Notes under the pieces: model-generated
The model's database searches: none
What the model was told of the DNA's origin: nothing
What the model saw: the letters and a program-made list of their open reading frames with translations, nothing else
Part shown: positions 15,886 through 36,319 of the stretch, in pieces
Position numbering within the stretch: position 1 is the stretch's first letter
Layout: the number at the start of each line of letters is the position of its first letter
Program-made: the position numbers and the translations under genes
Origin: a virus
Virus record (IMG/VR): IMGVR_UViG_3300027763_000032
Span: 57,011 to 121,010 of that record
Direction: 5' to 3' (one strand)
DNA length: 64,000 nt

Positions 15886-16620
15886 ATGATTAAGGACATT
15901 TTAACAGACATCGTAGCACATACACACAGCTTAGGGTTTTTACCTTTAGTAAAAATTACAGGCGATAAGACTACAACAACCATCGAGTCAATGGCTGAAG
16001 ATCGTTCAGTTATCGTAACTGCTAGTGCTCACAAGGCAGTTGACGTATTTGAAGGCACATTTGGTATGCCAAACTTAGACAAGTTAAATCTTCACTTGAA
16101 GAATCCAGAATATAAAGAGAACGCAAAAATTGATGTTACTAAGGCGCAACGTAATGGTGAAGAAATTCCTGTAGGATTACACTTTGAAAATCAAGCAGGC
16201 GATTTTCAAAACGACTATCGCTTTATGAATGCCGACATCATTAACGAAAAGTTAAAGACTGTTAAATTTAAAGGCGCAAGCTGGGACGTAAGTTTTGAAC
16301 CGAGCGTTACTGCTATTCAACGTTTGAAGTTGCAATCAGCAGTTCATACAGAAGAGACAGTTTTTCAAGTTCGCACAGAAGATGGTAACTTGGTATTTTT
16401 CTTCGGTGACGCAAGCACTCACGCAGGTTCGTTTGTATTTCAACCAAATGTTACTGGTAAACTAAAGCACACATGGGCATGGCCTGTGCAACAAGTTATT
16501 AGCATACTAAATCTTTCTGGTAATGTTACTATGAAGATTAGCGATGCAGGTGCTATGCAAATTACTGTTGATTCCGGTGTTACAGAATATAACTATATTT
16601 TACCAGCACAATCTAAATAA
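15886..16620 (+). CDS. probable sliding clamp (gp45-like)
   Basis: 244 aa, two-domain alternating beta/alpha pattern, C-terminal YNYILPA, adjacent to PolB whose tail (NQLFEF) resembles a clamp-binding motif. Confidence 0.65.
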   Translation: MIKDILTDIVAHTHSLGFLPLVKITGDKTTTTIESMAEDRSVIVTASAHKAVDVFEGTFGMPNLDKLNLHLKNPEYKENAKIDVTKAQRNGEEIPVGLHFENQAGDFQNDYRFMNADIINEKLKTVKFKGASWDVSFEPSVTAIQRLKLQSAVHTEETVFQVRTEDGNLVFFFGDASTHAGSFVFQPNVTGKLKHTWAWPVQQVISILNLSGNVTMKISDAGAMQITVDSGVTEYNYILPAQSK

Positions 16621-16970
16621 TGAATAGTGTACAAGTATTTTCCGGATGTCTAGCGTTCTTAGTTCTATGTGGTGTTGTATATCGCCACATAGGATTTGCA
16701 AAAATGAAAGAATGTTATGGCATGTGGTTTACAAAGGAATACTGGACCGACTACAACACTGTGGAGTTTGCCAGTTGGGCGGCGAAGGCCTGTATTATTG
16801 TTCCTGGCTTAATATTTGGTATACAAATTTGGTGGTTATATTTCTTTACATTGGCAACAAGTCTAACACTTATTTGGGCTAGTGAGAAAAAGCTACTTCC
16901 AACTCTAGTAGGATTTAACACTATATGGGTATGGATTAGTTGCATGGTATTGGCAAAACATTTAATATGA
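16620..16970 (+). CDS. membrane protein
   Basis: Several hydrophobic helices. Confidence 0.7.
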   Translation: MNSVQVFSGCLAFLVLCGVVYRHIGFAKMKECYGMWFTKEYWTDYNTVEFASWAAKACIIVPGLIFGIQIWWLYFFTLATSLTLIWASEKKLLPTLVGFNTIWVWISCMVLAKHLI

Positions 16971-18499
16971 ATAAAAACTTAACAGCAACGCAAAACGATT
17001 ATGCATATTTCTTGCCAGCTACGTCGGGCTTCTACTCAACGTTTATAGGCAAGCAAAGATATGGTAATTATGTAGACCCTGCACGTATTCCACCGAGTCT
17101 TACTAACGGAGTAGAAAGTCTTAACTATCTTAATCCAGACAAGGGTCAGTTTTACTTTGATCATTGTTTGTATTCAGCAGGTCATGCTAACTTAGACCTT
17201 AACAAGCCAGACGAAACTGAGGACATGTTCCGCAACAGAGATCGTAATACCAGTTGGGTATTAGGTGACTCAGGCGGATTCCAGATTGGTAAAGGTGTTT
17301 GGCCTGCTGACTGGAAAGATCCCAACTGTCCTAAAGCCGCATTAAAACGCAAACAAGTTTTAACGTGGATGGATAGTCTTATGGACTATGGCATGGGCCT
17401 TGATATTCCAGCGTGGGTCGCTCGTAGCCCTGCAGGACGTGCGGCAACTGGTATTAGCACATATAACGAAGCAGTCCAAGGCACGTTTATCAATAATGAA
17501 TACTTTATTAACAATCGTAACGGCAACTGTAAGTTCTTAAATGTTCTTCAAGGTGAAAACCATACTGATGCTGAAGGTTGGTATCAGCATATGAAGAAAT
17601 ATAGTGATCCAACAATCTATGGCGACCGTGCATTTAATGGTTGGGGCATGGGCGGACAAAACATGTGTGATATTCACCTTGTACTCAAACGTCTAGTAGC
17701 ATTACGCTTTGATGGCCTGCTAGAAAAAGGTCAACAAGATTGGATGCACTTTTTAGGTACTAGTAAGTTAGAATGGGCCGTACTATTAACTGACATTCAA
17801 CGTGCTGTACGCAAGCATCACAATAGTCAGTTCACTATTAGTTTTGATTGTGCAAGTCCATTCCTAGCAACTGCTAATGGACAGATCTATATCAACACAG
17901 AAACAGACGATCGTACCAAATGGGTCTATCGTATGCAATCGTCGGCTGATGATAAAAAATATTCTACTGATACTAGACTATTTAAAGATGCAGTATTACA
18001 AGATAAAATATTTGAACGATTTGAGTCAAGTCCTATTATTGATCAAATGCAAATGAAAGATATTTGCATCTATAAGCCAGGCGACCTAAATAAGAATGGT
18101 AAAGAAGGTAAGACGTCTTGGGATAGTTTTAGCTATGCTTTAATGATGGGGCATAATGTTTGGATGCATATTAATGCCGTTCAAGAAGCCAATCGCCAAT
18201 ATGATTTGGGCAAATTGCCGTCCATGTTAGTTGACGAACGCTTTGATAGAGTGTATTATAAGGACATAGTAGAAGCAATATTTTCAACTAGTGATAGAGG
18301 TATAGCTGATGCTGTTGTAGAAGAATACAGCAGATATTGGATGAGTATTATTGGTACTAGAGGTGCAACAGGTAAAAAGACAGTAAACGCACAAACACAT
18401 GCGGACATACACTTTGAAATCGAAGCTAACTTAGAGCCGGAAAAGAAAGCCAAAGTTGAACCTAAAGAAATTATCCTTAACCCGAGTTTATTTGAATGA
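16967..18499 (+). CDS. dpdA: TGT-fold guanine transglycosylase, DpdA-like
   Basis: GDSGGFQIG signature, LDIP, VLQG, GWGMGG, MHFLG, SFDCASP match TGT barrel motifs; start at ATGA overlap 16967. Confidence 0.75.
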   Translation: MNKNLTATQNDYAYFLPATSGFYSTFIGKQRYGNYVDPARIPPSLTNGVESLNYLNPDKGQFYFDHCLYSAGHANLDLNKPDETEDMFRNRDRNTSWVLGDSGGFQIGKGVWPADWKDPNCPKAALKRKQVLTWMDSLMDYGMGLDIPAWVARSPAGRAATGISTYNEAVQGTFINNEYFINNRNGNCKFLNVLQGENHTDAEGWYQHMKKYSDPTIYGDRAFNGWGMGGQNMCDIHLVLKRLVALRFDGLLEKGQQDWMHFLGTSKLEWAVLLTDIQRAVRKHHNSQFTISFDCASPFLATANGQIYINTETDDRTKWVYRMQSSADDKKYSTDTRLFKDAVLQDKIFERFESSPIIDQMQMKDICIYKPGDLNKNGKEGKTSWDSFSYALMMGHNVWMHINAVQEANRQYDLGKLPSMLVDERFDRVYYKDIVEAIFSTSDRGIADAVVEEYSRYWMSIIGTRGATGKKTVNAQTHADIHFEIEANLEPEKKAKVEPKEIILNPSLFE

Positions 18500-19044
18500 A
18501 ACGTGATTACACAGACGGTATTAGTGAAGCAGTAAATTTCTTCATTGGTAATGAGGTTGAACACACTCCTGCATTTGGCATGCGTACTTTGTTTGTTACA
18601 GGCATTCATAACGAACAAGTCATTGAACACTTACTAGGTGATCAAAACTGTTTGCTTGACACTAGTAAACATATTAAGCATATCTTCTTTGGTGCTAATC
18701 ACAGTTTCAATCCGCAATGGAATGATTACGAAGGTTGGAAGGCATGGGAAGAAATGATCACATATTTCCTAGATCGAGACTATCTATGTAGTTTAGATAT
18801 TCCGTTAAGTGCTGTAGAAGAATTTAATGATGGCGGATTAAACGACTACAATAATTTTATTCCTCAAATTAGAATTCCAATTCCCTATATTAAATTATGG
18901 AATTATAATACAATGCTTAAAATTGATGACAAAGATTTTAAAGCAACTAATCCCGGCGTGTGGACTCATAGTCTACACAATCTTAAAGACCGTAGCAAGT
19001 TCACTCCGTGGGCAGACTACAAAAACGACACAATCTTAAAATGA
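18496..19044 (+). CDS. hypothetical protein coupled to dpdA-like gene
   Basis: ATGA overlaps at both ends; GNEVEHTP, FFGANHSF. Confidence 0.75.
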   Translation: MKRDYTDGISEAVNFFIGNEVEHTPAFGMRTLFVTGIHNEQVIEHLLGDQNCLLDTSKHIKHIFFGANHSFNPQWNDYEGWKAWEEMITYFLDRDYLCSLDIPLSAVEEFNDGGLNDYNNFIPQIRIPIPYIKLWNYNTMLKIDDKDFKATNPGVWTHSLHNLKDRSKFTPWADYKNDTILK

Positions 19045-19436
19045 TTATTAAACAAGACATTCGACCAAATAAAATGATCTGGGTTACATTCCGTAAGGAA
19101 GGTATTCACTGCTATCCGGCGGCGGCTACAGATCCAAAACTAGCAACAGGAGATGAATATGATGTATCGTTTCTCGGTACTCCTCATCGCCATATCTTTC
19201 ATTTCAGGGTGTGGCTCAGTGTGCAACACAATGATAGGGACGTCGAGTTCATCCAGTTCAAACGATGGCTCGAGTCGCTGTATAATGGTCAAGGTTCCGT
19301 TTTGAGCCTTGATTACAAGAGTTGTGAAATGATGTCAGATGATTTACATGGCATTATTTCCAATAGGTATCCAGATCGTGAGGTTTGGATTGAGGTCTCC
19401 GAAGACGGAGAAAATGGTTCATTTATTAAATATTAA
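19041..19436 (+). CDS. QueD-paralog T-fold protein, DpdL-like
   Basis: FLGTPHRHIFHF = LxxxHRHxF in place of the QueD CxxxHGH; RDVEFIQFK; SCEMM. Confidence 0.65.
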   Translation: MIIKQDIRPNKMIWVTFRKEGIHCYPAAATDPKLATGDEYDVSFLGTPHRHIFHFRVWLSVQHNDRDVEFIQFKRWLESLYNGQGSVLSLDYKSCEMMSDDLHGIISNRYPDREVWIEVSEDGENGSFIKY

Positions 19437-19454
19437 TCTTTAGGAAATACTAAG

Positions 19455-19685
19455 ATGAAAAGAGAAGTCGTTCAGATTTTTGACGATCTAGAGGCCCTGC
19501 TGAATTTTTGCAGGTTAAATATGGCACCTTTTAACGAGGCAGACCTTTATAATAAGGGTTCAAAAGTTTGGAGAGATTACGAATACAGTAAGCGTCCCCG
19601 CAACTATGAGCGTAAAGAGTATCAAGGCAATAAGCCACGCAACAACGGTGGTTACAATAATAACTATCGCAACGGTCGTCAGTAA
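19455..19685 (+). CDS. small hypothetical protein with N/G/R-rich tail
   Basis: 76-aa ORF with SD. Confidence 0.65.
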   Translation: MKREVVQIFDDLEALLNFCRLNMAPFNEADLYNKGSKVWRDYEYSKRPRNYERKEYQGNKPRNNGGYNNNYRNGRQ

Positions 19686-20789
19686 ATGGCAACTGTCTAT
19701 CTAGTAGACCTTGAGCCTGTAGAAACTCGCTACACGGCTCAATGGAAGACTCATCTTCCTGCTATCTTACGAAAGAGAGGACATGATGTTCAAATTTTAT
19801 CTGGGCCTGAAGATATTCCTACAGCCACTACTCCTGGTGCTTTTCTTAATTTTGGTGGCACCAATATATACAAGTCTGCTCAAGTTGAGCAAATGGGCAG
19901 GCTATTTTGTAACGGAGCCGTTCATCCCGGCGATCACTTTATCTTTACTGATGCTTGGCATCCTGGTATCATAAACTTAAAGTATATGAGCGAACTACTA
20001 GGTATTCCTGTAGTTACACATGGCCTATGGCATGCTGGTAGTTATGATCCTCAGGATTTCCTAGGACGCTTAGTTGGTAAAAAGGGGTGGGTTAGACACG
20101 CAGAACAAAGTTTTTTCTATGCGTTTGATCACAACTACTTTGCTACTAAATTCCATATTGAGTTATTCCATAGAGAATTGCTCAACGGAGGATTCCAAAC
20201 AGAGAATCCCTGGTATGAAGATGAACTAAGTGAGATCCTAGCAGGTGAGTACACTAAGATTGTACGCACAGGTTGGCCTATGGAGTATATGGACTCAACG
20301 CTAACTATGTATAAAAACATGCCCAAGCGTGATCTTATCTTGTTCCCGCATCGCATTGCTCCAGAAAAACAAGTAGATATCTTCCGTGATTTAGCACAAC
20401 ACCTACCACAATATGAATTTGTTGTTTGTCAAGATCAACAACTAACTAAAAATGAATATCATAATCTATTAGGTGAAGCTAAACTAGTGTTTAGCGCCAA
20501 TCTACAAGAAACGTTAGGCATCAGTTGGTACGAAGGTGCAGTAGTAGATGCTATACCCATGGTGCCAGATAGATTAAGCTACAGTGAAATGGCTTTTGAT
20601 ACCTTTAAGTATCCGAGTGAATGGACTGAAAGTTACGAGGCTTACGATTCTGCAAGACCTGCTGTTTGCAATAAGATCATGCAGTACATGAATCATTACG
20701 ATCAGTTCTTACCGCAACTAAAAAAACAAACGGAGGCTCTACGTGAGCAATACTTCACAGCTAACGGACTGTATAACAATATCAAGTGA
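19686..20789 (+). CDS. GT-B glycosyltransferase
   Basis: FPHRIAPEKQ and QETLGISWYEG (GT4-like E-x7-E region); N-terminal FTDAWHPG, WHAGSYDP. Confidence 0.8.
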   Translation: MATVYLVDLEPVETRYTAQWKTHLPAILRKRGHDVQILSGPEDIPTATTPGAFLNFGGTNIYKSAQVEQMGRLFCNGAVHPGDHFIFTDAWHPGIINLKYMSELLGIPVVTHGLWHAGSYDPQDFLGRLVGKKGWVRHAEQSFFYAFDHNYFATKFHIELFHRELLNGGFQTENPWYEDELSEILAGEYTKIVRTGWPMEYMDSTLTMYKNMPKRDLILFPHRIAPEKQVDIFRDLAQHLPQYEFVVCQDQQLTKNEYHNLLGEAKLVFSANLQETLGISWYEGAVVDAIPMVPDRLSYSEMAFDTFKYPSEWTESYEAYDSARPAVCNKIMQYMNHYDQFLPQLKKQTEALREQYFTANGLYNNIK

Positions 20790-21150
20790 CGTTGGCGTTA
20801 TTGCACAAGAAGTAGGATCTGTATGTTCCGATACTATTACTCTTGATACCAGTATTTGGAATATGAGTTCGGGCACTGGCACTAGCTATTACTATACAGG
20901 TGCTGGTGTTACAGGGTCTTCTGGAACTATAACTATAAGTGGTGCCGGTAGCGGCGCTAGTGGGTACACTATTGGTAACATCAATACGTCTACATTCAAT
21001 TGGAAGACTGAGGAGTTTGTAGATTGCCTACCAGATTTTGATAGAATTCAAAAGATGTGCGACCAATATCCTGGATTGAAAATAGCATACGAAAAATTTG
21101 TAACAACGTATAAGTTAGTGAAAGATGATTATGATAGTCCAAAAGATTAA
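20743..21150 (+). CDS. T/S/G-rich hypothetical protein
   Basis: GTG start with GGAGG SD; C-terminal YPGLKIAYEKF. Confidence 0.6.
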   Translation: MSNTSQLTDCITISSDVGVIAQEVGSVCSDTITLDTSIWNMSSGTGTSYYYTGAGVTGSSGTITISGAGSGASGYTIGNINTSTFNWKTEEFVDCLPDFDRIQKMCDQYPGLKIAYEKFVTTYKLVKDDYDSPKD

Positions 21151-21604
21151 AAACCAATTCTTTTCCTTTTTAGAAAACCGAGATCGCAAGCGTATCATTA
21201 TGGATAGGCAATGTAACGAGCCTTTGCTAACTCGTTACTATTTGTTCTTAAAGGATCGTAAGCGTTTTCCATTTAATGTATTCCTACATAAATTTCACAA
21301 AGGTGACCCAGGCGATGTACACGATCATCCATGGCCGTACTTTACTTTAATTTTAGCAGGCGGCTATTACGAATGGGTGCCTAAATTTGCTAACGAGATT
21401 ATGATTGGCGAAATTCGTATGTGGCGAGGTCCCGGCCATTTTAGATTTTGTAGTTCTACTAGCTATCATCGAATTGAATTAAAAGAAGGCATTACGCCTT
21501 GGACCTTGTTTATGCCAGGTCCGCAAAGACGAGAATGGGGATTTCTTGTCAATAATAAATGGATACACACTGATGAGTACCTTGAAACAAACAAGCAACA
21601 TTAA
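21125..21604 (+). CDS. cupin-fold metal-binding protein
   Basis: LHKF...VHDHPW.YFTLIL.GGYYE and distal HRIEL. Confidence 0.65.
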   Translation: MIMIVQKIKNQFFSFLENRDRKRIIMDRQCNEPLLTRYYLFLKDRKRFPFNVFLHKFHKGDPGDVHDHPWPYFTLILAGGYYEWVPKFANEIMIGEIRMWRGPGHFRFCSSTSYHRIELKEGITPWTLFMPGPQRREWGFLVNNKWIHTDEYLETNKQH

Positions 21605-21992
21605 AAACGGATTGGTTGGAAGTACGGTGTCTTTTACTGAGACTACTACCGCTACATCAAATCCTTATATAACTACTACTTCAGGAACATCCGGGCAGTT
21701 TTTAACATCAACCGGAAGTAATGGCACGACATGGACTACTGGTACTACTCCATACGATGCTGTAATGTCTATTAATCAATCCAAACCGGCTACTATAGAA
21801 GTTAAAGGTAATATGGTTATTAACGGGCGAGACTTAGAAGAACGGTTAGATACAATTGAAAAAGTCTTGCAAATTCCAGAAAGAGATGTTAAACTAGAAA
21901 AGAAGCATCCAAAGCTAAAGAAGCTGTATGATGAATACATTAATGCATTGGGTAAGTACAGAACATTCGACGCAATAAAAGGAGATGAATGA
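21573..21992 (+). CDS. T/S/G-rich hypothetical protein (paralog-like of 20743)
   Basis: Low-complexity N-terminal half, C-terminal HPKLKKLYDEY. Confidence 0.6.
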   Translation: MSTLKQTSNIKNGLVGSTVSFTETTTATSNPYITTTSGTSGQFLTSTGSNGTTWTTGTTPYDAVMSINQSKPATIEVKGNMVINGRDLEERLDTIEKVLQIPERDVKLEKKHPKLKKLYDEYINALGKYRTFDAIKGDE

Positions 21993-22222
21993 TGGAACTA
22001 CATGAATCAGTTAGAGATACCTACAAAGAAATGGTTATTAAAGAACACGAAGGCTTTCGCCTAACATTAAAGAAACACGAAGTACTAATGCCTAAAGGAT
22101 TGTTTAGTATTGATATGGTTCAAGAAAGTCTGAAAGACGGCAAAGTAGTTGAGTCACAAGTTTATAATTTCTTTATGACTAAAGAAGAATTGCAAAATCT
22201 TGCACAGGGCTTAACTGCATGA
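21989..22222 (+). CDS. hypothetical protein
   Basis: ATGA coupled, AGGAG SD. Confidence 0.65.
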   Translation: MMELHESVRDTYKEMVIKEHEGFRLTLKKHEVLMPKGLFSIDMVQESLKDGKVVESQVYNFFMTKEELQNLAQGLTA

Positions 22223-22728
22223 AAAAAATATACTACAGTTGGAAAGACGTCGAAGGTGCTTGTTTAGATATTGCTAGACAAGTAATTTCTAGCCAATGGC
22301 GGCCTGACTATATTGTAGGCATTACTCGCGGTGGTGCAATCCCCGCAGTAATGTTAAGTCAGTTTTTTAATATTCCCATGCGTCCACTTCAAGTGTCTTT
22401 AAGAGACGGTGGCGATTGTGTTAGCGATCTAGGCATGGCTGAAGATGCGTTTGGTCATGAAGAAGATCCTAAAAATATCCTTATTGTAGATGACATCAAT
22501 GATCAAGGATCAACTATTGCTTGGATCAAACAAGATTGGCCAAGCGGATGTTTTCCAGATCACAATCAATGGACAAAGACATGGGGGCATAACGTTCGGT
22601 TTGCTACATTAACAAATAATATGGCCAGTAAAGAAACTGTTGACTATTCAGTATGGGAAGTCAACAAAGCAGAGGAAGATTGCTGGCTAGTTTATCCGTG
22701 GGAAGAGTTTTGGCGCAATGACAACTGA
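22219..22728 (+). CDS. purine phosphoribosyltransferase (Gpt/Hpt-like type I PRTase)
   Basis: IVGITRGG and ILIVDDINDQGST PRPP-binding loop. Confidence 0.88.
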   Translation: MKKIYYSWKDVEGACLDIARQVISSQWRPDYIVGITRGGAIPAVMLSQFFNIPMRPLQVSLRDGGDCVSDLGMAEDAFGHEEDPKNILIVDDINDQGSTIAWIKQDWPSGCFPDHNQWTKTWGHNVRFATLTNNMASKETVDYSVWEVNKAEEDCWLVYPWEEFWRNDN

Positions 22729-23089
22729 TATTGAAAGGGCACTTGATGAAAAACGAGCACCGTGGACAGGTATTGAATACCGAACCAAAGACTATTGGGT
22801 CTTCCGAGATGCATACCCAGTTACGGAAGGACATCTGTTATTTGTGCCTACCAAAGAAGACTGGGACCATCTCTGGGACTGCTACAAAGCCGCATATAAA
22901 TTCGGTTACATGGGAGTCGAATCGGGTAGGTGGGACGCTTTTAATGTCGGACAAAACTGTGGCGAGGCTGCTGGGCAAACAGTAATGTATCCGCATGTAC
23001 ATATGATTCCTCGACGTGCAGGAGATATGGAAGATCCTCGTGGCGGAGTTCGTCATGTTATTCCAGAAAAAGGAAACTACAAAAAATGA
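22718..23089 (+). CDS. HIT-family nucleotide hydrolase
   Basis: DAYPVTEGHLLFVP, GQNCGEAAGQTVMYPHVHMIPR. Confidence 0.88.
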   Translation: MTTDIERALDEKRAPWTGIEYRTKDYWVFRDAYPVTEGHLLFVPTKEDWDHLWDCYKAAYKFGYMGVESGRWDAFNVGQNCGEAAGQTVMYPHVHMIPRRAGDMEDPRGGVRHVIPEKGNYKK

Positions 23090-23265
23090 GTAAATGTACC
23101 TGCGGTCGAACTACTAACGAACCATGGTGTGATGGTAGTCACACATTAACCGAAGCACAATATCAAGAACGTTGCAGAGAAGTTGAACTTGAGGAATACA
23201 AACGTCAAGCTCAAGAATTATGGAATGACTCCTGCACTAGCATTAGGTCTAATGATGTCAAGTGA
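23086..23265 (+). CDS. CDGSH-type 2Fe-2S protein, 59 aa (absent from ORF track)
   Basis: MSKCTCGRTTNEPWCDGSH matches C-x-C-x2-(S/T)-x3-P-x-C-D-G-S-H exactly; ATGA overlap with the HIT stop. Confidence 0.85.
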   Translation: MSKCTCGRTTNEPWCDGSHTLTEAQYQERCREVELEEYKRQAQELWNDSCTSIRSNDVK

Positions 23266-23458
23266 GTGCGATGTTCGTATTGACTGGGATAACCAAAATG
23301 GATTTTGGTGGAATGAAACTTGTGCATTAGTATTGGAAGTTTTTGGATTGCCCGGAAATAGATACGAGTCTCATCCAGACTCAGACTATATGCTGTTTAA
23401 ATTTAAATCAAAAAAGGATGCAGACCTATGCCGCATACTGTTAAGCGAACGATTCTAA
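23252..23458 (+). CDS. hypothetical protein
   Basis: Likely start MMSSEC at 23252, since the upstream part of the track ORF overlaps the CDGSH gene. Confidence 0.55.
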   Translation: MMSSECDVRIDWDNQNGFWWNETCALVLEVFGLPGNRYESHPDSDYMLFKFKSKKDADLCRILLSERF

Positions 23459-23631
23459 TAACTATAGCAATTGCTGTATATGTTGCTGTAATGTTTTTAA
23501 TATTTCCAATGATGATGCCAAAAAAAGGTGATGTTATTAGAATTGACTGCACATGGAGTGAGATAAGTCCAGACTTTAGTCCAGAAATGAAACAAGCGTG
23601 TCGTAAGGCTCGTATATCAAATCCCACATGA
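23428..23631 (+). CDS. small membrane-anchored protein
   Basis: One hydrophobic helix followed by a two-Cys segment. Confidence 0.55.
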   Translation: MPHTVKRTILITIAIAVYVAVMFLIFPMMMPKKGDVIRIDCTWSEISPDFSPEMKQACRKARISNPT

Positions 23632-23930
23632 TAAAATTTAACTTCAGCTTACTAAATCCTTTTAAGCACGAAAACTTCATCGACTTGTATAATTGGCACG
23701 GTAGAATTACTAAAAATAAATCTTGGGAAGTAGAGTTAAACTACTATGCTTACGAATGGTTTGTTGTTAACATAGATCTATCTTGGAAGGGCAGTGATCA
23801 TGCAGGACCTAGTTTTGAAATTGGTTTATTTGGTTATAATCTAGGTGGCAATATATACGACAATAGACATTGGGATTATGAAAATAAATGTTGGGAATCT
23901 CTTGACAACGACCTAAATAAAGTAGTATAA
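23628..23930 (+). CDS. aromatic-rich hypothetical protein
   Basis: ATGA coupled, 100 aa. Confidence 0.6.
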   Translation: MIKFNFSLLNPFKHENFIDLYNWHGRITKNKSWEVELNYYAYEWFVVNIDLSWKGSDHAGPSFEIGLFGYNLGGNIYDNRHWDYENKCWESLDNDLNKVV

Positions 23931-23931
23931 T
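23902..23931 (+). promoter_or_regulatory. sigma70-type promoter upstream of folE, with embedded CTAAATA
   Basis: TTGACA-18 nt-TATAAT. Confidence 0.6.
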
Positions 23932-23971
23932 AACACAAAGACATCCACGTCATTAACTCGGAGAATTATAA

Positions 23972-24802
23972 TTGACAAACAAATTTACACCAGATCCTGT
24001 TCTTAAAGAACCGCCAGAATTTAAAACAGATGAATATGTACCTTTAAAGAAAGAAGTGTATGTTAAAAAAGAAACTGGCTTAGATGCTATGGCAGGTGAT
24101 GGCGGATACCAGGAAGCATACTTTGCAGATGTTATCCGCACTAAAATGAAACGTGATAATAAACGTTTTTGGGCTGGCGACAACATTAGCGATTATCTAC
24201 ACGAAGGCGATGTAGAAAAATTAATTGACGAAACAACAGAAGCATTTGAACTAGTGCTAGATCGTTTGCTAATTGACCGTGAAAACGATCCCAACAGTCA
24301 AGGCACAGCAAGGCGCCTTGCTAAGATGTATTTTAATGAAATAATGGCAGGAAGATATGAACCAGGCCCAGACGCAACAGCTTTTCCAAATGACTCTGCA
24401 GACCGCTACGAAGGTATGCTTGTGGTTCGCAGTGAGTTACGTTCCATGTGTTCTCATCATCACCAGCCTGTTAGTGGGGTTGCCTACATCGGTATCATTG
24501 CCGCTAATAAACTTATTGGTTTATCTAAGTATACTAGAATAGCACAGTGGTGTGCCCGAAGAGGAACACTACAAGAAGAATTGTGTAACGATATTGCCCG
24601 AGAAGTTAGCAAGGCAACTGACTCAGAAAACGTAGCAGTCTATGTCCAAGCAGTACACGGATGCTGTGAGAATCGCGGTATTATGGCACACTCTAGTCTA
24701 ACACAGACTACAGTATTGCGTGGAACATTTAAAGATGATCCTCACACAAAGAAAGAGTTTTTTGACAACATTAAACTTCAACAAGAGTTTGCACCACGAT
24801 GA
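23972..24802 (+). CDS. folE: GTP cyclohydrolase I
   Basis: SMCSHHHQP, GLSKYTRI, QEELC, AVHGCCENRG; TTG start with GGAG SD. Confidence 0.93.
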   Translation: MTNKFTPDPVLKEPPEFKTDEYVPLKKEVYVKKETGLDAMAGDGGYQEAYFADVIRTKMKRDNKRFWAGDNISDYLHEGDVEKLIDETTEAFELVLDRLLIDRENDPNSQGTARRLAKMYFNEIMAGRYEPGPDATAFPNDSADRYEGMLVVRSELRSMCSHHHQPVSGVAYIGIIAANKLIGLSKYTRIAQWCARRGTLQEELCNDIAREVSKATDSENVAVYVQAVHGCCENRGIMAHSSLTQTTVLRGTFKDDPHTKKEFFDNIKLQQEFAPR

Positions 24803-25470
24803 CCTACTGTTTAATACCAATGACTGTTCCTGAGATTAATAATCTTTTAGGGGCTAATTTTGTAAATACATTTCAAACTGAGATGGATTTAATTATTGCT
24901 CCTTTAAGAAAATATATTGCAAAAGGATATCCGTTAGCACTAGGTAAAGAGCAGTGGGAGTACGTGGTTTCTGAATCTATTCCTAATGCAGAATGGTGTG
25001 GTGCAGGAAAAAGCATTATCGATGTTAAGATTGGTAGCATAGGTATAGATGTCAAGGGCGTTAGTAAAGAAGAAACATCAACGTCGACTACCGAAGCTAG
25101 TATGTTCCAATCATTTAAAGAAGAAACAAAATTATATTTCAATAAAAAAGATACTGAAAGTATTTGGAATCTATTTGTCGATGGGTGGCTTTCTAAAGTT
25201 AAATCTGTAGATGAATATTATCTTATTGGTATTGTTAGAGAAAAAGAAACGCTTAACTGCTCACTGTGTGCATTTAAGGTTGCTGACACTAATCTATTAT
25301 ACGAGGACGATCTTTGTAAGTTCACAAAAAAGTCTATGAAAGTATCAGGATTAGCAGATTCTGCATTTATTGAAACAAGAGTTTACAGTAGCAAAACTAG
25401 ATTAGAAATTAAATTTAAAAGCAAGGTTTGGCAAGACCCTAACTATGCTTTACCAATTTACAAATTTTAA
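24799..25470 (+). CDS. putative PD-(D/E)xK restriction-endonuclease-like nuclease
   Basis: EQWEYVV helix, then IIDVKIGSIGIDVKGV (D..DxK); visibly AT-richer than flanks. Confidence 0.5.
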   Translation: MTYCLIPMTVPEINNLLGANFVNTFQTEMDLIIAPLRKYIAKGYPLALGKEQWEYVVSESIPNAEWCGAGKSIIDVKIGSIGIDVKGVSKEETSTSTTEASMFQSFKEETKLYFNKKDTESIWNLFVDGWLSKVKSVDEYYLIGIVREKETLNCSLCAFKVADTNLLYEDDLCKFTKKSMKVSGLADSAFIETRVYSSKTRLEIKFKSKVWQDPNYALPIYKF

Positions 25471-25480
25471 GGAGACCCAA

Positions 25481-25672
25481 ATGTCACAACTAAGCAAACT
25501 AGCAAAAGTAAATGAAAATATTAGCATAAATCGTTACGACAACGGTTGGATGGTTGAAATCGGTGGACGAGATAAAAAAGAAGAATGGAAAACAACCAAG
25601 ACACTTTGCAACTCAGAAGAAGAAGTTATTACTCTTATCAAAGAGTGGAACACATTACCTTTAGACGTTTAA
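25481..25672 (+). CDS. small hypothetical protein
   Basis: AAGGAG SD before MSQLSKLAK. Confidence 0.65.
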   Translation: MSQLSKLAKVNENISINRYDNGWMVEIGGRDKKEEWKTTKTLCNSEEEVITLIKEWNTLPLDV

Positions 25673-25682
25673 GGAGAATATT

Positions 25683-26378
25683 ATGTTTGGAACAAACTTT
25701 ACAGGCGGTGATGTACTAAGTTACCGTAGTGCTAGCGAAATTAACTCAGCGATGGGGCGTGTCTATGGACACATGAGCCTTGCTGTTATTGTATCAATGA
25801 TTGTCAGTTACTTTGTGGGTACTAGTCCAGAGTTACTACAATTCTTTTTTACAGGTGTAATGAAGTGGATTGTAATCTTTGCACCGCTTGCGGCAATCTT
25901 TGGTGTTGCTATGGTGCTAGGTAATAATCCTAGCAAAGGCGTAGCACAGTTATGCCTACATGGATTTGCGGCACTAATGGGATTGAGCTTTGCTACAATC
26001 TTTGCCGTGTTCAATATGGGATCAATTGTTAGTGCCTTTATGGGTGCGGCAATCTTGTTTGGTGTAATGAGTGGTTACGGCTACTTTACCAAACGTAGTT
26101 TAGAAAGCATGGGGCAATTTATGTTTATAGGTTTGATTGCCATTGTTATTGCCAGCATTGTCAATATCTTTATTGGATCAAGTGTAATGGCCATGGTCAT
26201 TAGTGCCTTGGCAATTATTATCTTCCTAGGACTGACTGCCTATGATACACAACGTATTCGTGAAGAACTAAGTGTAGACACTACTCCGGCCGCCGAAGTC
26301 AGCGGTGCTTTAAGCCTATACATGAACTTTATTAACTTGTTTTTAAACTTGTTACAACTATTTGGAGAAAGAAAATAA
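25683..26378 (+). CDS. Bax inhibitor-1/YccA-family membrane protein
   Basis: Seven hydrophobic helices, GLTAYDTQRI, ALSLYMNFINLFLNLLQLFG. Confidence 0.9.
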   Translation: MFGTNFTGGDVLSYRSASEINSAMGRVYGHMSLAVIVSMIVSYFVGTSPELLQFFFTGVMKWIVIFAPLAAIFGVAMVLGNNPSKGVAQLCLHGFAALMGLSFATIFAVFNMGSIVSAFMGAAILFGVMSGYGYFTKRSLESMGQFMFIGLIAIVIASIVNIFIGSSVMAMVISALAIIIFLGLTAYDTQRIREELSVDTTPAAEVSGALSLYMNFINLFLNLLQLFGERK

Positions 26379-26593
26379 TGAACTCAATAGATATGGCCAA
26401 TGACCTAATATTTAGGGCAAAAAACTTACAAGAGTTTGTAGTTGAAACTGATGTGCCGGAAGATTTTAGATTTAATGGTGTAATACCATTTGACATGCAG
26501 ATTAAAGATAGTATAATAAGTGCTAAGGTAATGGCACTCGACTTTGACGAAGCTGTTACACAACTCGATAACTTTTTAGAAAGCTGTAAATGA
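26378..26593 (+). CDS. hypothetical protein
   Basis: TAATG coupled, 71 aa. Confidence 0.6.
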   Translation: MNSIDMANDLIFRAKNLQEFVVETDVPEDFRFNGVIPFDMQIKDSIISAKVMALDFDEAVTQLDNFLESCK

Positions 26594-26763
26594 ATCCGCA
26601 ACACTTATATACTATCCGCTGGACACAACCATATGCCACTTACCAAATGCGCCCATATCTTCGCCAACTTCGTAACGACTACGAAGTTCAAATTGAAGAT
26701 AAACTGGCTCGTGGTCAGTTTGATGATGCGAAAGCAGTCTTAGAAAGAATTATGAAATTATGA
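26590..26763 (+). CDS. 57-aa hypothetical protein (absent from ORF track)
   Basis: MNPQHLYTIRWTQPY...ERIMKL*; overlaps with neighbours at both ends and fills the gap exactly. Confidence 0.6.
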   Translation: MNPQHLYTIRWTQPYATYQMRPYLRQLRNDYEVQIEDKLARGQFDDAKAVLERIMKL

Positions 26764-27050
26764 ACTGGTTAAAACTTAAATTTCGAGATTGGATAAACAG
26801 CGCACAAGACATATACGAGACGTCTGGTCGACAAAATCGATTAGTTAGTAGTGCTGAAGAAAAGTCTATCGGTGATGATCCTGTATTAAATTTCAAAGTT
26901 TATTCAGCGGTAGGTGGTAAGGTTGTAGAGTTTAGACGTTATGATCGCAAGAGTGATCGTAACGATAGTACTACATACATTATTACAAATGATCAAGACT
27001 TTGGTGAACGTATTGCAAAAATTGCTACAATGGAAAATTTAAAAGCATGA
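26760..27050 (+). CDS. hypothetical protein
   Basis: ATGA coupled. Confidence 0.65.
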   Translation: MNWLKLKFRDWINSAQDIYETSGRQNRLVSSAEEKSIGDDPVLNFKVYSAVGGKVVEFRRYDRKSDRNDSTTYIITNDQDFGERIAKIATMENLKA

Positions 27051-27388
27051 ACGCACAGGTACCTGCAGAAGGCATTTTAAAACATAACGAGTGGGGCGAC
27101 TCAAAAGTTTATCGAGTTTTATGCGAATGTGGAGATAGCAGTCACGAACACAACGTATGGGTAGAAGCTGACGACCACGACATTTCAGTTACTATCTATA
27201 CTACAACTAAGACTAACTTTTGGTCTAAAACACGTTGGTATCATATTTGGACTTTACTATCTAAAGGCTACATCGATACAGAATCAACTGTTTGTTTAAA
27301 AAGACAAAGTGCTTTGAACTATGCAGAAACATTAAAAAGTGCTATAATAGATGTAGAAGAATTTAGGAAGAACAATGTCAAAAATTAA
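27047..27388 (+). CDS. hypothetical protein with CECG..H motif
   Basis: ATGA coupled. Confidence 0.65.
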   Translation: MNAQVPAEGILKHNEWGDSKVYRVLCECGDSSHEHNVWVEADDHDISVTIYTTTKTNFWSKTRWYHIWTLLSKGYIDTESTVCLKRQSALNYAETLKSAIIDVEEFRKNNVKN

Positions 27389-28232
27389 AATTGCAGAATT
27401 ATTTTATAGTGTGCAGGGCGAAGGACGCTACATGGGCGTCCCGTCTGTATTTCTACGCACATTTGGTTGTAACTTTAAGTGTGCCGGCTTTGGCATGCCA
27501 CGTGGCGAACTAAGTCACGAAGCAACGGATATTGCGGCTACGCATACTATGATCAAGTCTTTTCAAAATTATAAAGACTTGCCACTAGTTAGCACAGGTT
27601 GTGATAGCTATGCTAGTTGGATGCCCGAGTTTAAAGATCTAAGCCCATTGCTCTCAAGCGATGCTATTGCCGATGGTATTATGGATATGCTACCCTACGA
27701 AGAATGGCGAGATGAACATCTTGTTATTACAGGTGGCGAACCTTTGTTAGGTTGGCAACGTGCCTATCCAGACTTGTTAGATAATCCTAAGATGGCAAGT
27801 CTTAAGGAAATTACCTTTGAGACAAACGGTACTCAATCTTTAACAGACGAATTTAGATCTTATTTGCACAACTGGAAGAAAGCTAGTCCAGATCGAGAAA
27901 TTACATTTAGTGTAAGTGCTAAACTGCCATGTAGCGGTGAAGCATGGGATGAAGCAATTAAACCACAAACAGTGTGCGAGTATGAATGGTTTGGTACAGC
28001 ATATTTGAAATTTGTTATTGCCACAGAACAAGACTTTGCCGATGCAGAGTGTGCTATTGCCGCTTATCGCACAGCAGGGTTTAAAGGACACGTTTACCTA
28101 ATGCCTGTGGGTGGTGTAGAAAGTGTCTATGCGATGAATAATAAGAATGTAGCTATATTGGCTATGAAACACGGCTTACGTTATAGTGACCGTTTGCAAG
28201 TGCCGTTATTTAAAAATGAGTGGGGAACCTAA
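27375..28232 (+). CDS. queE: 7-carboxy-7-deazaguanine synthase (radical SAM)
   Basis: SVQGEG, FLRTFGCNFKC...GCDS, VITGGEP, FETNGT, LKFVI, VYLMP. Confidence 0.82.
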   Translation: MSKIKIAELFYSVQGEGRYMGVPSVFLRTFGCNFKCAGFGMPRGELSHEATDIAATHTMIKSFQNYKDLPLVSTGCDSYASWMPEFKDLSPLLSSDAIADGIMDMLPYEEWRDEHLVITGGEPLLGWQRAYPDLLDNPKMASLKEITFETNGTQSLTDEFRSYLHNWKKASPDREITFSVSAKLPCSGEAWDEAIKPQTVCEYEWFGTAYLKFVIATEQDFADAECAIAAYRTAGFKGHVYLMPVGGVESVYAMNNKNVAILAMKHGLRYSDRLQVPLFKNEWGT

Positions 28233-35020: not shown

Positions 35021-35553
35021 TAGCAGGAATGTTTGCAGTAGATAGTGTTGGGGGAATGGGATGGAAAGGTTCAATGCCTTGGCCTAATAACCCCGACGAT
35101 ATGAAATGGTTTAAAGCCACTACACAAAATCAAATTGTTGTCATGGGTAGAAAGACTTGGGATAGTCCCGATATGCCAAGTCCGCTACCAGGAAGACATA
35201 ATGTAGTGTTTACTAACAACTTTTTTGATCAAGACGATATTGAACAAATACGTGGCGATGTATGCGAAGCATTAGTCAGTTTAAAAAGCCACAATAAAAG
35301 AAAAAATATTTTTGTTATAGGTGGTCCAAATTTGCTTATGCAAAGTAGACCTGTACTTGAAAGAGTGTATCTTACTCGAATTTCAGGTGGATACTTAAAT
35401 GACACAACTATTGACCTAGTGGATTTTCTAGACGGAATGGTATTACACCAAACTGTTAATCTTGGATCTTGTATAGTAGAAGAATATCATAATGAAGCAA
35501 TATCATCAAGCGTTAAAGCATATACTAATAAACGGAAAAAACAAGACCGATAG
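35017..35553 (+). CDS. folA: dihydrofolate reductase
   Basis: GMGWKGSMPW, DMKWFK, VVMGRKTWDS, PLPGRHNVV, VIGG. Confidence 0.92.
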   Translation: MIAGMFAVDSVGGMGWKGSMPWPNNPDDMKWFKATTQNQIVVMGRKTWDSPDMPSPLPGRHNVVFTNNFFDQDDIEQIRGDVCEALVSLKSHNKRKNIFVIGGPNLLMQSRPVLERVYLTRISGGYLNDTTIDLVDFLDGMVLHQTVNLGSCIVEEYHNEAISSSVKAYTNKRKKQDR

Positions 35554-36319
35554 AACGGGGGTAGGAACCCGTAGCGTATTTGGTTATCAAATGCGTTTTA
35601 ATCTGCAAGAAGGTTTTCCAGCTACAACTACTAAGAAGCTCGCCTGGCGAGCGGTTGTAAGCGAACTCCTTTGGTTCTTAGAGGGCAGTGGTGACGAACG
35701 CCGGCTTGCGGAGATCCTACACGGTACTAGAGATTTATCTAAAACAACAATATGGACTGCCAATGCTAAAGCAGACTATTGGTTACCTAGAGCACACTTT
35801 GAAGGTGACCTAGGTCGCGTCTACGGAGTACAGTGGAGAGACTTTCTAGGTGTTGACCAAGTACAACGACTAATCGACGGTATTAAGAACGACCCTAGCG
35901 GACGTAGACATATCCTTTCAGCATGGAATCCTGCCGAACTTACAGATATGGCGCTACCGCCATGTCATGTATTAAGTCAATTTGATGTGACTGACGGTTA
36001 TCTAAGCTGTCAAATGTATCAGCGTAGTTGCGATATGTTCTTAGGTGTACCTTTTAACATTGCCAGCTATAGTTTGCTAACACACATTATCGCTCGCGAG
36101 TGCGGTCTTAAGGTGGGGGACTTTGTTTGGACTGGTGGTGACTGCCATATCTACAACAATCACTTTGAAGCTGTGGAAGTTCAGCTAGGCAGAGAACCTA
36201 AGCCATTACCTACACTAGTTTTTACAACAGGCAAAAAAATCGCCGACTATACTGTCGACGATTTTGTATTGGATAACTATAATCCAGATCCAGCTATTAA
36301 AGCTGAAATGGCTGTTTAA
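35492..36319 (+). CDS. thyA: thymidylate synthase
   Basis: GRVYGVQWR, MALPPCH, YQRSCDMFLGVPFNIASY, GDCHIYNNH. Confidence 0.97.
   Translation: MKQYHQALKHILINGKNKTDRTGVGTRSVFGYQMRFNLQEGFPATTTKKLAWRAVVSELLWFLEGSGDERRLAEILHGTRDLSKTTIWTANAKADYWLPRAHFEGDLGRVYGVQWRDFLGVDQVQRLIDGIKNDPSGRRHILSAWNPAELTDMALPPCHVLSQFDVTDGYLSCQMYQRSCDMFLGVPFNIASYSLLTHIIARECGLKVGDFVWTGGDCHIYNNHFEAVEVQLGREPKPLPTLVFTTGKKIADYTVDDFVLDNYNPDPAIKAEMAV

Follow-up and report, generated by a model that had tools for sequence, protein, structure and literature searches.

A probable QueC-less, DpdL-type pathway for 7-deazaguanine DNA modification in an uncultured PA5oct-like jumbo phage

In the Cellulophaga phage phiST, all of the dG in the DNA is replaced by 2'-deoxy-7-deazaguanosine (dDG), and the phage encodes FolE, QueD, QueE, DpdL, and DpdA3 but no QueC (PMC10516641). 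DpdL, which is defined by the motif LxxxHRHxF (PMC10516641), is predicted to be a decarboxylase. A DpdA is encoded by every phage that is known to have a 7-deazaguanine in its DNA, and the base is held to be inserted post-replicatively (PMC10516641). Cui et al. did not observe dDG in E. coli with the dpdL and dpdA genes of either phiST or the Acidovorax phage ACP17 (PMC10516641). ACP17 and nt-1 are T4-like phages with DpdA2; phages of the nt-1 type differ in that they carry QueC and ArcS, and their products are dPreQ0 and dG+. Finally, the DNA of PA5oct, a Pseudomonas jumbo phage (Wroclawvirus), carries modified G (PMC12191111), but the paper names only QueE and PTPS and no transglycosylase.

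We analyzed a 64,000-nucleotide stretch of viral DNA (the window) from within a 121-kb contig. The contig comes from an uncultured PA5oct-like jumbo (giant) phage and represents about 33% of its genome. We propose that this locus probably encodes a QueC-less, DpdL-type pathway for 7-deazaguanine DNA modification. The initial annotation had suggested a 7-deazaguanine system with a DpdA-like transglycosylase, which our results support. The genes of the module lie where that annotation placed them, and all are on the + strand (Table 1). We counted the presence of each gene across 80 related loci, and in the 14 long related loci that we examined, the order from polB to QueE is always retained.

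Table 1. Genes at the locus, with positions in the window and the evidence for each
Feature	Coordinates	Strand	Evidence
Family B DNA polymerase (polB)	13165..15834	+	PF00136, E 3.5e-37; PF03104, E 2.7e-17
Clamp-like protein, putative sliding clamp	15886..16620	+	phrog_12062, E 8.5e-34
116-aa hydrophobic, membrane-like ORF	16620..16970	+	no family match
DpdA-like DNA-guanine transglycosylase (putative), 510 aa, unclassified TGT-fold lineage	16967..18499	+	AF2/Foldseek/VIA fold; catalytic residues
X182, conserved 182-aa protein of unassigned function	18496..19044	+	in 74/80 related loci
DpdL (QueD paralog; predicted CDG decarboxylase)	19071..19436	+	LGTPHRHIF; phrog_17812, E 1e-31
76-aa basic protein with N/G/Y/R-rich tail	19455..19685	+	no family match
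GT4-like (GT-B, Glycos_transf_1-type) glycosyltransferase	19686..20789	+	EX7E motif ETLGISWYE
Cupin-like protein	21125..21604	+	phrog_4786 'cysteine dioxygenase', E 2e-34
Gpt-like purine PRTase	22219..22728	+	PF00156, 43.2 bits (cut-off 26.3)
HIT-family nucleotide hydrolase/transferase	22718..23089	+	PF01230, 36.6 bits (cut-off 21.5); PHVHMIPR
FolE, GTP cyclohydrolase I	23972..24802	+	PF01227, 132.9 bits (cut-off 27)
Variable 223-aa ORF	24799..25470	+	no Pfam, NCBIfam, PHROG, or PADLOC match
Bax-inhibitor-1-family membrane protein	25683..26378	+	PF01027, 179.8 bits
113-aa Cys/His protein just upstream of queE	27047..27388	+	CxCx4(H/C)xH motif
QueE, 7-carboxy-7-deazaguanine synthase, radical SAM	27375..28232	+	phrog_2076, E 4e-47

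The conserved run begins with polB, whose product shares 44-48% identity with its counterparts in Vibrio phage 2.275.O and PA5oct. Both of these phages have homologues of the clamp-like gene at the same position, and the protein may be a sliding clamp. (In Phosso, the protein at the equivalent position is annotated as a sliding clamp.) As first noted, the TGT-like gene is downstream of polB and the clamp with a single membrane-like ORF between them; this ORF is found in just part of the group (26 of 80 loci).

The putative transglycosylase does not match any curated TGT or DpdA model: it fails PF01702, and we found no match in Pfam, NCBIfam, PHROG, or PADLOC. Its AF2 model (pLDDT 89.3) has TGTs as all of its top 50 hits in Foldseek (E 2e-7, probability 1.0), and VIA aligns it to TGT with Z = 20.1 over 306 residues. 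It has the same TIM-barrel as the TGTs of Z. mobilis and T. maritima (Z = 19-20 over about 305 residues) and shares the DSGGFQ motif with them. Across 53 homologues, D101-S-G-G, D146, N192, H261, G264, and D294 are invariant, and the conserved residues align to D102, D156, and D280 of TGT. Unlike the bacterial enzymes, to which it is just 13-15% identical, it lies amid genes for DNA replication and deazaguanine synthesis, and none of the cysteines of the TGT-type zinc site are conserved among its homologues. Also, a Pfam search revealed neither a PUA domain nor any other domain for tRNA recognition. In support of a role in DNA modification, members of this family are found within deazaguanine clusters in Vibrio phage 2.275.O, in PA5oct, and in a 289-kb IMG/VR contig.

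Placing this protein among the DpdA subfamilies, as had been suggested, gave DpdA2 as the nearest type, but remotely. The hhalign probabilities are 96% for ACP17, 94% for BUDD, and 89% for nt-1, but this likeness is limited to about 185 core columns, and BLAST found no similarity to DpdA2 of the ACP17/nt-1 type. The DpdA3 of phiST is more distant: it has 259 amino acids instead of 510, BLAST found no similarity, and the hhalign probability is only 50%. Judging from these comparisons, the protein appears to be a distinct lineage of DpdA that is absent from the literature we searched. The same lineage would include a candidate DpdA for PA5oct, hitherto unnamed and likewise absent from that literature.

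The initial annotation also reported folE, queE, and a QueD paralog. The first two are genuine, as the matches in Table 1 indicate. FolE has an N-terminal extension of about 80 amino acids and is 55% identical to FolE from Vibrio phage 2.275.O. QueE matches phrog_2076 ('QueE-like radical SAM') over its full length, and five NCBIfam models for QueE match at E = 3e-13 to 3e-10, each below its cut-off. It shares 29-31% identity with the proteins annotated as QueE in PA5oct, ACP17, and Vibrio 2.275.O, and C32, C36, and C76 are invariant. The QueD paralog is indeed a T-fold paralog, but its identity as DpdL had been missed: its LGTPHRHIF fits the DpdL motif, and it is 54.5% identical to DpdL from ACP17, 53% identical to that of PA5oct, and 32% identical to phiST gp040.

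No QueC or QueF had been seen in the window, and a search beyond it had been suggested for queC, queD, and queF. A QueD is encoded elsewhere on our contig, 35 kb upstream of the window (PF01242, 54.8 bits); its motif, CxxxHGY, is that of QueD from phiST, ACP17, and BUCT-ZZ01. QueC, QueF, and the TGT of Pfam had no match anywhere on the 121-kb contig. We found no real QueC in five related contigs (150-223 kb) or in the complete genome of PA5oct, and QueC was not found in ACP17 or phiST either. If gene order is kept, then the related contigs would cover about 325 kb of the roughly 370-kb genome. Because our contig is about a third of the genome, it is only through these relatives that a QueC elsewhere is made unlikely. 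The missing QueC supports the earlier view that the pathway does not continue to preQ0 or G+. A branch at 7-carboxy-7-deazaguanine (CDG) is supported as well, but this branch point has already been described: it is the DpdL of the phiST-type pathway (PMC10516641). The pathway appears to stop at CDG because it is of this QueC-less type.

We predict that FolE would convert GTP to dihydroneopterin triphosphate, the distant QueD would form 6-carboxy-tetrahydropterin, and QueE would form CDG. DpdL would then strip the carboxyl group from CDG to give free 7-deazaguanine, which the TGT-fold protein would swap for guanine in the phage DNA after replication. The exchanged base would shield the DNA from restriction enzymes, and the Gpt-like PRTase probably recycles the released guanine into the nucleotide pool. 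The predicted minimum product is dDG.

The locus resembles that of phiST in having FolE, QueD with CxxxHGY, QueE, DpdL with LxxxHRHxF, and a transglycosylase of the TGT superfamily but no QueC, and in both phages the modification genes adjoin replication genes. Unlike in phiST, the pathway genes are dispersed across 11 kb, and queD lies 35 kb away. Also, tblastn did not find the GT4-like gene or X182 in phiST, and the annotated dpd locus of phiST shows no PRTase. In ACP17, which has the same accessory set, the genes for FolE, the X182 homologue, DpdA, the GT-like protein, DpdL, and QueE form a single run. X182 is 32% identical to the ORF directly upstream of dpdA in ACP17 and 40% identical to a protein of PA5oct. 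(A structural search with the AF2 model of X182, pLDDT 79, gave nothing convincing: Foldseek E ≥ 0.05 and VIA-wide Z ≤ 6.0.) PA5oct is syntenic across polB, the clamp-like gene, a small ORF, the DpdA-like gene (36% identity), the GT-like gene (39%), DpdL (53%), and on to QueE and RNase H (53%), and it also lacks QueC. However, the shared genes are annotated as hypothetical in PA5oct, its DpdL has HFH instead of HRH, and its X182 is elsewhere in the genome. The modification in PA5oct seems to be incomplete and confined to GA/GG contexts, which is a point against our proposal, as are the E. coli experiments that gave no dDG with the phiST or ACP17 genes and, for the transglycosylase, the mismatch to curated models and the unconserved zinc-site cysteines.

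Other genes between dpdL and queE had been annotated as a cupin, a PRTase, a HIT protein, a nuclease, and a CDGSH protein, and the first three calls hold. The cupin-like gene is in 35 related loci, but the loci of PA5oct, ACP17, and phiST contain nothing equivalent. The HIT gene is in 29 related loci, and its product may take part in the pathway. Among the NCBIfam models, the PRTase comes closest to xanthine PRTase (E = 2e-12, below the cut-off). The 113-aa protein matches nothing in Pfam, zf-CDGSH included, and the CDGSH call could not be confirmed; all 15 homologues compared retain C26, C28, and H35 and have H or C at position 33. The cupin, the HIT protein, and the Cys/His protein are conserved in this phage group but not beyond it. 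The supposed nuclease, the 223-aa ORF, is a variable insert outside the conserved module: it is in 1 of 80 related loci, as compared to 23 for the flanking FolE and 18 for QueE. The Bax-inhibitor gene, found in one related locus, is another such insert. The 76-aa basic protein occurs in 56 of the 80 loci, each time with dpdL on one side and the GT gene on the other.

The glycosyltransferase had been called correctly as GT-like, and it is the only one of the extra genes that is linked to DpdL over many lineages; the PRTase is linked more weakly. The GT protein is 39-49% identical to the proteins encoded near DpdL in PA5oct, ACP17, and Phosso. In this group the distance between the GT-like gene and DpdL is 0-3 kb, and a GT4-like gene sits no more than 3 kb from DpdL in six other phage lineages (Phosso, the PA5oct group, ACP17, BUDD/X1, BCSR5, and BUCT-ZZ01). 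This linkage was not found in the literature we searched. Such an enzyme, possibly in combination with X182 and an NDP-sugar, might add a sugar to deazaguanine to yield a sugar-bearing deazapurine. Its target could be either the free base or the DNA, with the electron-rich C7 or an exocyclic group as examples of possible sites. We consider this possible but doubtful. In its favor, besides the linkage to DpdL, tblastn found no such gene in phiST, which has plain dDG, or in DpdA2 phages of the QueC type, such as nt-1; X182 is common to this group, PA5oct, and ACP17; and dpdL and dpdA of ACP17 did not, by themselves, yield dDG in E. coli. Although the EX7E motif is present and distant relatives pass PF00534 or PF13692 (BUDD at 45.7 bits and BUCT-ZZ01 at 28.3 bits), and some of the Atlas neighbours are PF00534, the window's own protein has no significant hit in Pfam. 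Furthermore, the acceptor chemistry is purely speculative, since 7-deazaguanine lacks a hydroxyl, and no gene for NDP-sugar synthesis was identified in the window. Phage GT-B enzymes often target hmC-DNA, the host envelope, or proteins.

Another alternative is that the phage makes CDG and the host's QueC (or some other host enzyme) finishes preQ0, which the transglycosylase then inserts in the manner of DpdA1 and DpdA2, and that DpdL has a different role. Most bacteria encode QueC, as we saw in control genomes. Also, members of this DpdA-like family occur with QueC in a 289-kb IMG/VR contig and in Vibrio phage 2.275.O (where the neighbours are QueF-like, YhhQ-like, QueC, amidohydrolase, and FolE), so the family can probably handle bases of the preQ0 type. 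However, DpdL goes with the loss of QueC in every complete genome that we checked (PA5oct, ACP17, and phiST), and the DNA of phiST has dDG, not dPreQ0, so we think this is improbable. It is also quite unlikely that the base enters before or during replication, with the PRTase making a nucleotide, the phage polymerase incorporating the dNTP, and the TGT-fold protein acting on tRNA (the classical substrate of TGT) or in repair or proofreading: a purine PRTase is in the cluster here next to a HIT nucleotide enzyme, and in Synechococcus phage BUCT-ZZ01 a xanthine-guanine PRTase has queE on one side and queD on the other, but guanine salvage is a simpler account of the PRTase, the dpdA-like gene is directly behind polB and the clamp, like dpdA1 in phage 9g, and both the failure to detect a tRNA-recognition domain and the DpdA of the known phages, whose insertion step is held to be post-replicative, argue against it.

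We therefore favor a QueC-less, DpdL-type pathway in this PA5oct-like jumbo phage, with dDG as its minimum product. The tight link between the glycosyltransferase and DpdL suggests that dDG may not be the end product, and as a glycosyltransferase gene accompanies the modification set, the final base in the DNA may be one that has not been described before.

We propose that this gene cluster encodes a 7-deazaguanine DNA-modification pathway of the phiST type with a new lineage of DpdA. For the system as a whole, this is the best-supported reading, and we consider it probable. 7-Deazaguanine would be inserted into the DNA after replication by the new DpdA lineage, with 2'-deoxy-7-deazaguanosine (dDG) as the minimum product. 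This type of pathway is already known. All of the functional steps that go further than fold, motifs, homology, and gene linkage are ones that we infer. The one experimental anchor is the published data for Pseudomonas phage PA5oct, whose DNA resists cleavage at several G-containing restriction sites and which is restricted by nucleases that sense modified G (PMC12191111).

The window spans bases 57011-121010 of a linear 121-kb viral contig in IMG/VR that is about 33% complete (CheckV). Based on gene content and synteny, we place the contig with the PA5oct-like jumbo phages: compared to PA5oct, polB, the clamp-like gene, RNase H, and the AAA ATPase are 38-56% identical and their order is kept. 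Metagenomes are rich in close relatives (on contigs of up to ~357 kb). All of the genes in the initial annotation are present as + strand open frames. The window and other parts of the contig also contain giant ORFs (see table).

Features of the modification cluster and of related loci. Coordinates without a prefix are window positions; G000:C1 is the whole contig, and L001, L003, L088, and L091 are the loci of the contig's queD, PA5oct, BUCT-ZZ01, and phage 9g.
Feature	Coordinates	Strand	Match or occurrence
DpdA-like protein, 510 aa	16967-18499	+	
X182, 182 aa	18496-19044		
Putative DpdL	19071-19436	+	
GT4-like gene (GT)	19686-20789	+	
ORF beside cupin gene, 135 aa	20743-21150		35-38 related loci (both flanking ORFs)
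ORF beside cupin gene, 148 aa	21546-21992		35-38 related loci (both flanking ORFs)
PRTase	22219-22728	+	
HIT	22718-23089	+	
FolE	23972-24802	+	
ORF between folE and queE, 223 aa	24799-25470	+	1 of 80 related loci
Bax-inhibitor-1-family membrane protein, between folE and queE	25683-26378		1 of 80 related loci
Protein first called CDGSH	27047-27388	+	
QueE	27375-28232	+	
Thymidylate-synthase-family gene	35492-36319		PF00303, 347 bits
Giant ORF, 5160 aa	44820-60302	-	
Giant ORF, 3577 aa	G000:C1:9144-19877		
Giant ORF, 4713 aa	G000:C1:23795-37936		
QueD, 35 kb upstream of the window	G000:C1:21560-22075 (L001:1453-1968)		PF01242, 54.8 bits
PA5oct DpdL homologue EST35_0318	L003:12766-13143		
BUCT-ZZ01 module	L088:1-7700		
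Phage 9g polymerase, clamp, and dpdA	L091:36-3960		

The 510-amino-acid protein has no match in Pfam (E ≤ 0.01), PHROGs, or PADLOC (E ≤ 1), no meaningful match in NCBIfam, and no match to PDB sequences (phmmer). PF01702 (TGT) does not match anywhere on the contig, even at E ≤ 10, and the family's profile, when compared to PDB sequences, matched TGTs only below threshold (E ~1.3). Because sequence and profile searches were uninformative, the fold had to be predicted. With the AF2 model (pLDDT 89.3), the best 50 Foldseek matches were all TGTs (E = 2e-7, probability 1.0), and VIA-align aligned 306 residues of the model to TGT (Z = 20.1, rmsd 4.5), so the protein is predicted to have a TIM-barrel TGT fold. 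Across 53 diverse homologues, D101-S102-G-G104, D146, N192, H261, G264, and D294 are invariant, and the three aspartates D101, D146, and D294 align with D102 (of DSGGxQ), D156, and the nucleophile D280 of TGT. The profile search aligns the family to TGT 101-232, and its motifs also line up with the DSGG, HxLG, and SYD motifs of DpdA2-type proteins (hhalign). The zinc site of tRNA TGTs (CxCxxC...H) is not conserved: no cysteine in the family alignment is invariant or nearly so. Between the predicted fold and the invariant catalytic aspartates, the initial annotation of this gene as a dpdA-like TGT holds up. The family is large: searched exhaustively, it comprises 942 clusters at 50% identity, and each of two homologue searches gave at least ~8,000 clusters at 90% identity.

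Among DpdA1-4, where the initial annotation had suggested that this protein be placed, it is remotely nearest to DpdA2. BLASTP against DpdA2-type proteins found nothing beyond the DSGG motif, while hhalign gave probabilities of 96% for ACP17, 94% for BUDD, and 89% for nt-1, over ~185 core columns. (We call these three proteins DpdA2 type from the layout of the nt-1 locus and from Cui et al., PMC10516641.) The similarity to the DpdA3 of phiST (BLASTP E = 0.27; hhalign 50% over 81 columns) or to the DpdA1 of phage 9g (hhalign probability of 0.6%) does not indicate membership in either subfamily, and there was no Pfam match to PF20314 (DUF6610/DpdA4). By ordinary sequence criteria, the protein is a remote relative of DpdA2 and not a member, and the description that fits best is a lineage of its own within the DpdA/TGT superfamily. 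Phage 9g resembles the window only in the order of polymerase, clamp, and dpdA, as the two DpdAs are unrelated at the profile level. This recurrent placement hints that base exchange is coupled to replication.

From its genomic context and from the modified G in PA5oct DNA, we predict that the 510-amino-acid protein exchanges guanine in DNA for a 7-deazaguanine. In PA5oct, a member of this family, EST35_0316, occupies the same position after polB and the clamp, and the GT-like gene there is EST35_0317. The report on modification in PA5oct names only QueE and a PTPS, and no transglycosylase (PMC12191111); the family member is likely to be the PA5oct transglycosylase. In Vibrio phage 2.275.O, a family member adjoins QueF-like, YhhQ-like, QueC, amidohydrolase, and FolE genes, and another family member is on a 289-kb contig that carries QueC.

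The gene that was first described as a QueD paralog most plausibly starts at 19071, and its product contains LGTPHRHIF. The protein is a T-fold paralog of QueD in which LxxxHRHxF replaces CxxxHGH, and LxxxHRHxF is the signature that defines DpdL, a predicted decarboxylase of 7-carboxy-7-deazaguanine (CDG) (PMC10516641). By this signature, we identify the product as a putative DpdL. The motif is retained in the 65 related loci that have a homologue, and the protein shares 54.5% identity with its ACP17 counterpart and 32% with gp040 of phiST. In the PA5oct homologue, the sequence is LGYPHFHYF, where HFH replaces the defining HRH, and this variant may matter for which base PA5oct makes.

The main alternative is that GT, perhaps with X182, decorates the deazaguanine base, which we view as possible but unlikely. 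In support of decoration, the linkage of GT to DpdL spans lineages: a GT-like gene is 0-3 kb from DpdL in Phosso, the PA5oct-like phages, ACP17, Xanthomonas phages BUDD and X1, Burkholderia phage BCSR5, and Synechococcus phage BUCT-ZZ01. (tblastn did not find this gene in phiST or in QueC-type phages.) Also, dpdL and dpdA of ACP17 by themselves gave no dDG in E. coli (PMC10516641). However, 7-deazaguanine has no obvious acceptor group. As for GT itself, the window's protein has no match in Pfam or among PDB sequences, but it has the EX7E motif, and its relatives from BUDD (45.7 bits) and BUCT-ZZ01 (28.3/26.5 bits) are over the cut-off for the Glycos_transf_1-type Pfam family (PA5oct and ACP17 are under it); we treat it as a putative glycosyltransferase. 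A homologue search with GT as the query had only close relatives among the matches listed and added no diversity. A DUF3524/GTDC1-like N-terminal domain, which is a feature of the tRNA queuosine mannosyltransferase, is absent from the Pfam lists of the window and the relatives. We also considered whether GT serves a hydroxymethyl-pyrimidine pathway. The sole thymidylate-synthase-family gene scores as ThyA, and it is probably a true ThyA rather than a hydroxymethylase, so there is no indication of hmC or hmU. In the cultured T4-like cyanophage BUCT-ZZ01, the module contains two glycosyltransferases: the run is QueE, xanthine-guanine PRTase, QueD, FolE, a second GT (447 amino acids), a DpdA2-type protein, DpdL, and the GT-like gene.

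DpdL accompanies FolE, QueD, QueE, and DpdA here, without QueC. The initial annotation was correct that the window has neither QueC nor QueF, and neither has a match on the rest of the contig. The complete genomes of PA5oct, ACP17, and phiST likewise lack QueC, and there was no credible QueC in five related contigs (150-223 kb). Assuming that gene order is conserved, these five contigs extend ~162 kb to the upstream side of dpdA and ~163 kb to its downstream side, or over most of a ~370-kb genome. (One related contig had a 23-bit match to the C-terminal 58 positions only, which we judged not to be QueC.) It is improbable that a QueC from the host completes preQ0. In phiST, the gene set of FolE, QueD, QueE, DpdL, and DpdA goes with the complete replacement of dG by dDG (PMC10516641). 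Given the absence of QueC, the presence of DpdL, and this precedent, the suggestion that the pathway stops at or branches from CDG appears to be right, and it is already accounted for by the known DpdL branch.

The other genes of the phiST-type pathway are present. Searching for queD beyond the window, as was originally suggested, identified a QueD with the motif CSTLHGY, which is a CxxxHGY variant shared with the QueD that is annotated in phiST, ACP17, and BUCT-ZZ01. This queD is far from the other pathway genes. We also looked for a preQ1-type riboswitch, but no Rfam family had a match at queD or in window positions 12000-33000. FolE and QueE are firm family matches. QueE matches the radical-SAM family phrog_2076 (E = 4e-47) and five NCBIfam QueE models (E = 3e-13 to 3e-10, all below the cut-offs). 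The usual cysteine spacings in QueE are CX3CXphiC and CX14CX2C, and this protein differs, with an unusual Cx3Cx39C spacing; the three cluster cysteines (C32, C36, and C76) are invariant in all 22-23 homologues.

Across 14 long related loci, the gene order is fixed as polB, clamp, DpdA, X182, DpdL, a 76-amino-acid ORF, GT, and eventually QueE, with PRTase, HIT, FolE, and other ORFs between GT and QueE. Only some of these loci have the small membrane ORF and the cupin. PolB, PRTase, and HIT are firm family matches, and the cupin is supported by phrog_4786. The ORFs on either side of the cupin gene both have a low-complexity start that is rich in Thr, Ser, and Gly and a charged C-terminal part. 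Two of the original descriptions were not borne out: the "nuclease" between folE and queE has no family match, and the "CDGSH protein" has no Pfam match and conserves just CxCx4(H/C)xH, instead of the full zf-CDGSH motif CxCx2(S/T)x3PxCDG(S/A/T)H. The former "nuclease" and the Bax-inhibitor-1-family gene are so rare among related loci that they look like variable, strain-specific inserts outside of the pathway.

X182 is common to this group, PA5oct, and ACP17 only. Its model is moderately confident (pLDDT 79) and has no convincing structural relatives (best Foldseek E = 0.05). In a VIA-wide search, the best Z was 6.0, with STAS-like and QueE partial barrels tied and within the noise range. Its profile had no match in PDB, and Atlas gave nothing above 0.86. 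We rejected equivalence to the genes that occupy comparable positions in Phosso ("glycosylase"), BUCT-ZZ01, and BUDD, as the hhalign probabilities were under 1%.

Of the accessory genes, the GT-like gene and the Gpt-like PRTase are the two whose linkage to the pathway extends outside of this phage group; BUCT-ZZ01 also has such a PRTase, between queE and queD. The simplest role for the PRTase would be to recycle the guanine that is freed by base exchange. A nucleotide-level route via the PRTase, in which the TGT-fold protein would act on tRNA, seems quite unlikely.

DpdA is the signature gene for finding phage genomes with 7-deazaguanine modifications. Although very common, the 510-amino-acid lineage is missed by the models of Pfam, NCBIfam, PADLOC, and PHROG, so modified genomes are being undercounted. 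In the papers found by our literature search, setting aside the supplements of PMC10516641, we saw no description of this lineage or of GT as a regular partner of DpdL. The lineage supplies the missing transglycosylase candidate for PA5oct, a therapeutic-candidate phage whose modified G has been recognized only through restriction patterns. What sits on G affects restriction enzymes, CRISPR tools, sequencing chemistry, and the defence nucleases that sense modifications. It is possible but doubtful that DpdL and the GT4-like protein (with X182 in some lineages) together make a sugar-bearing 7-deazaguanine in DNA, which the new DpdA lineage installs. If so, a glycosylated purine would be on record in DNA for the first time, the DpdA lineage that installs it would be very common in environmental metagenomes (thousands of clusters at 90% identity), and cultured carriers would already exist in PA5oct, ACP17, Phosso, and BUCT-ZZ01.
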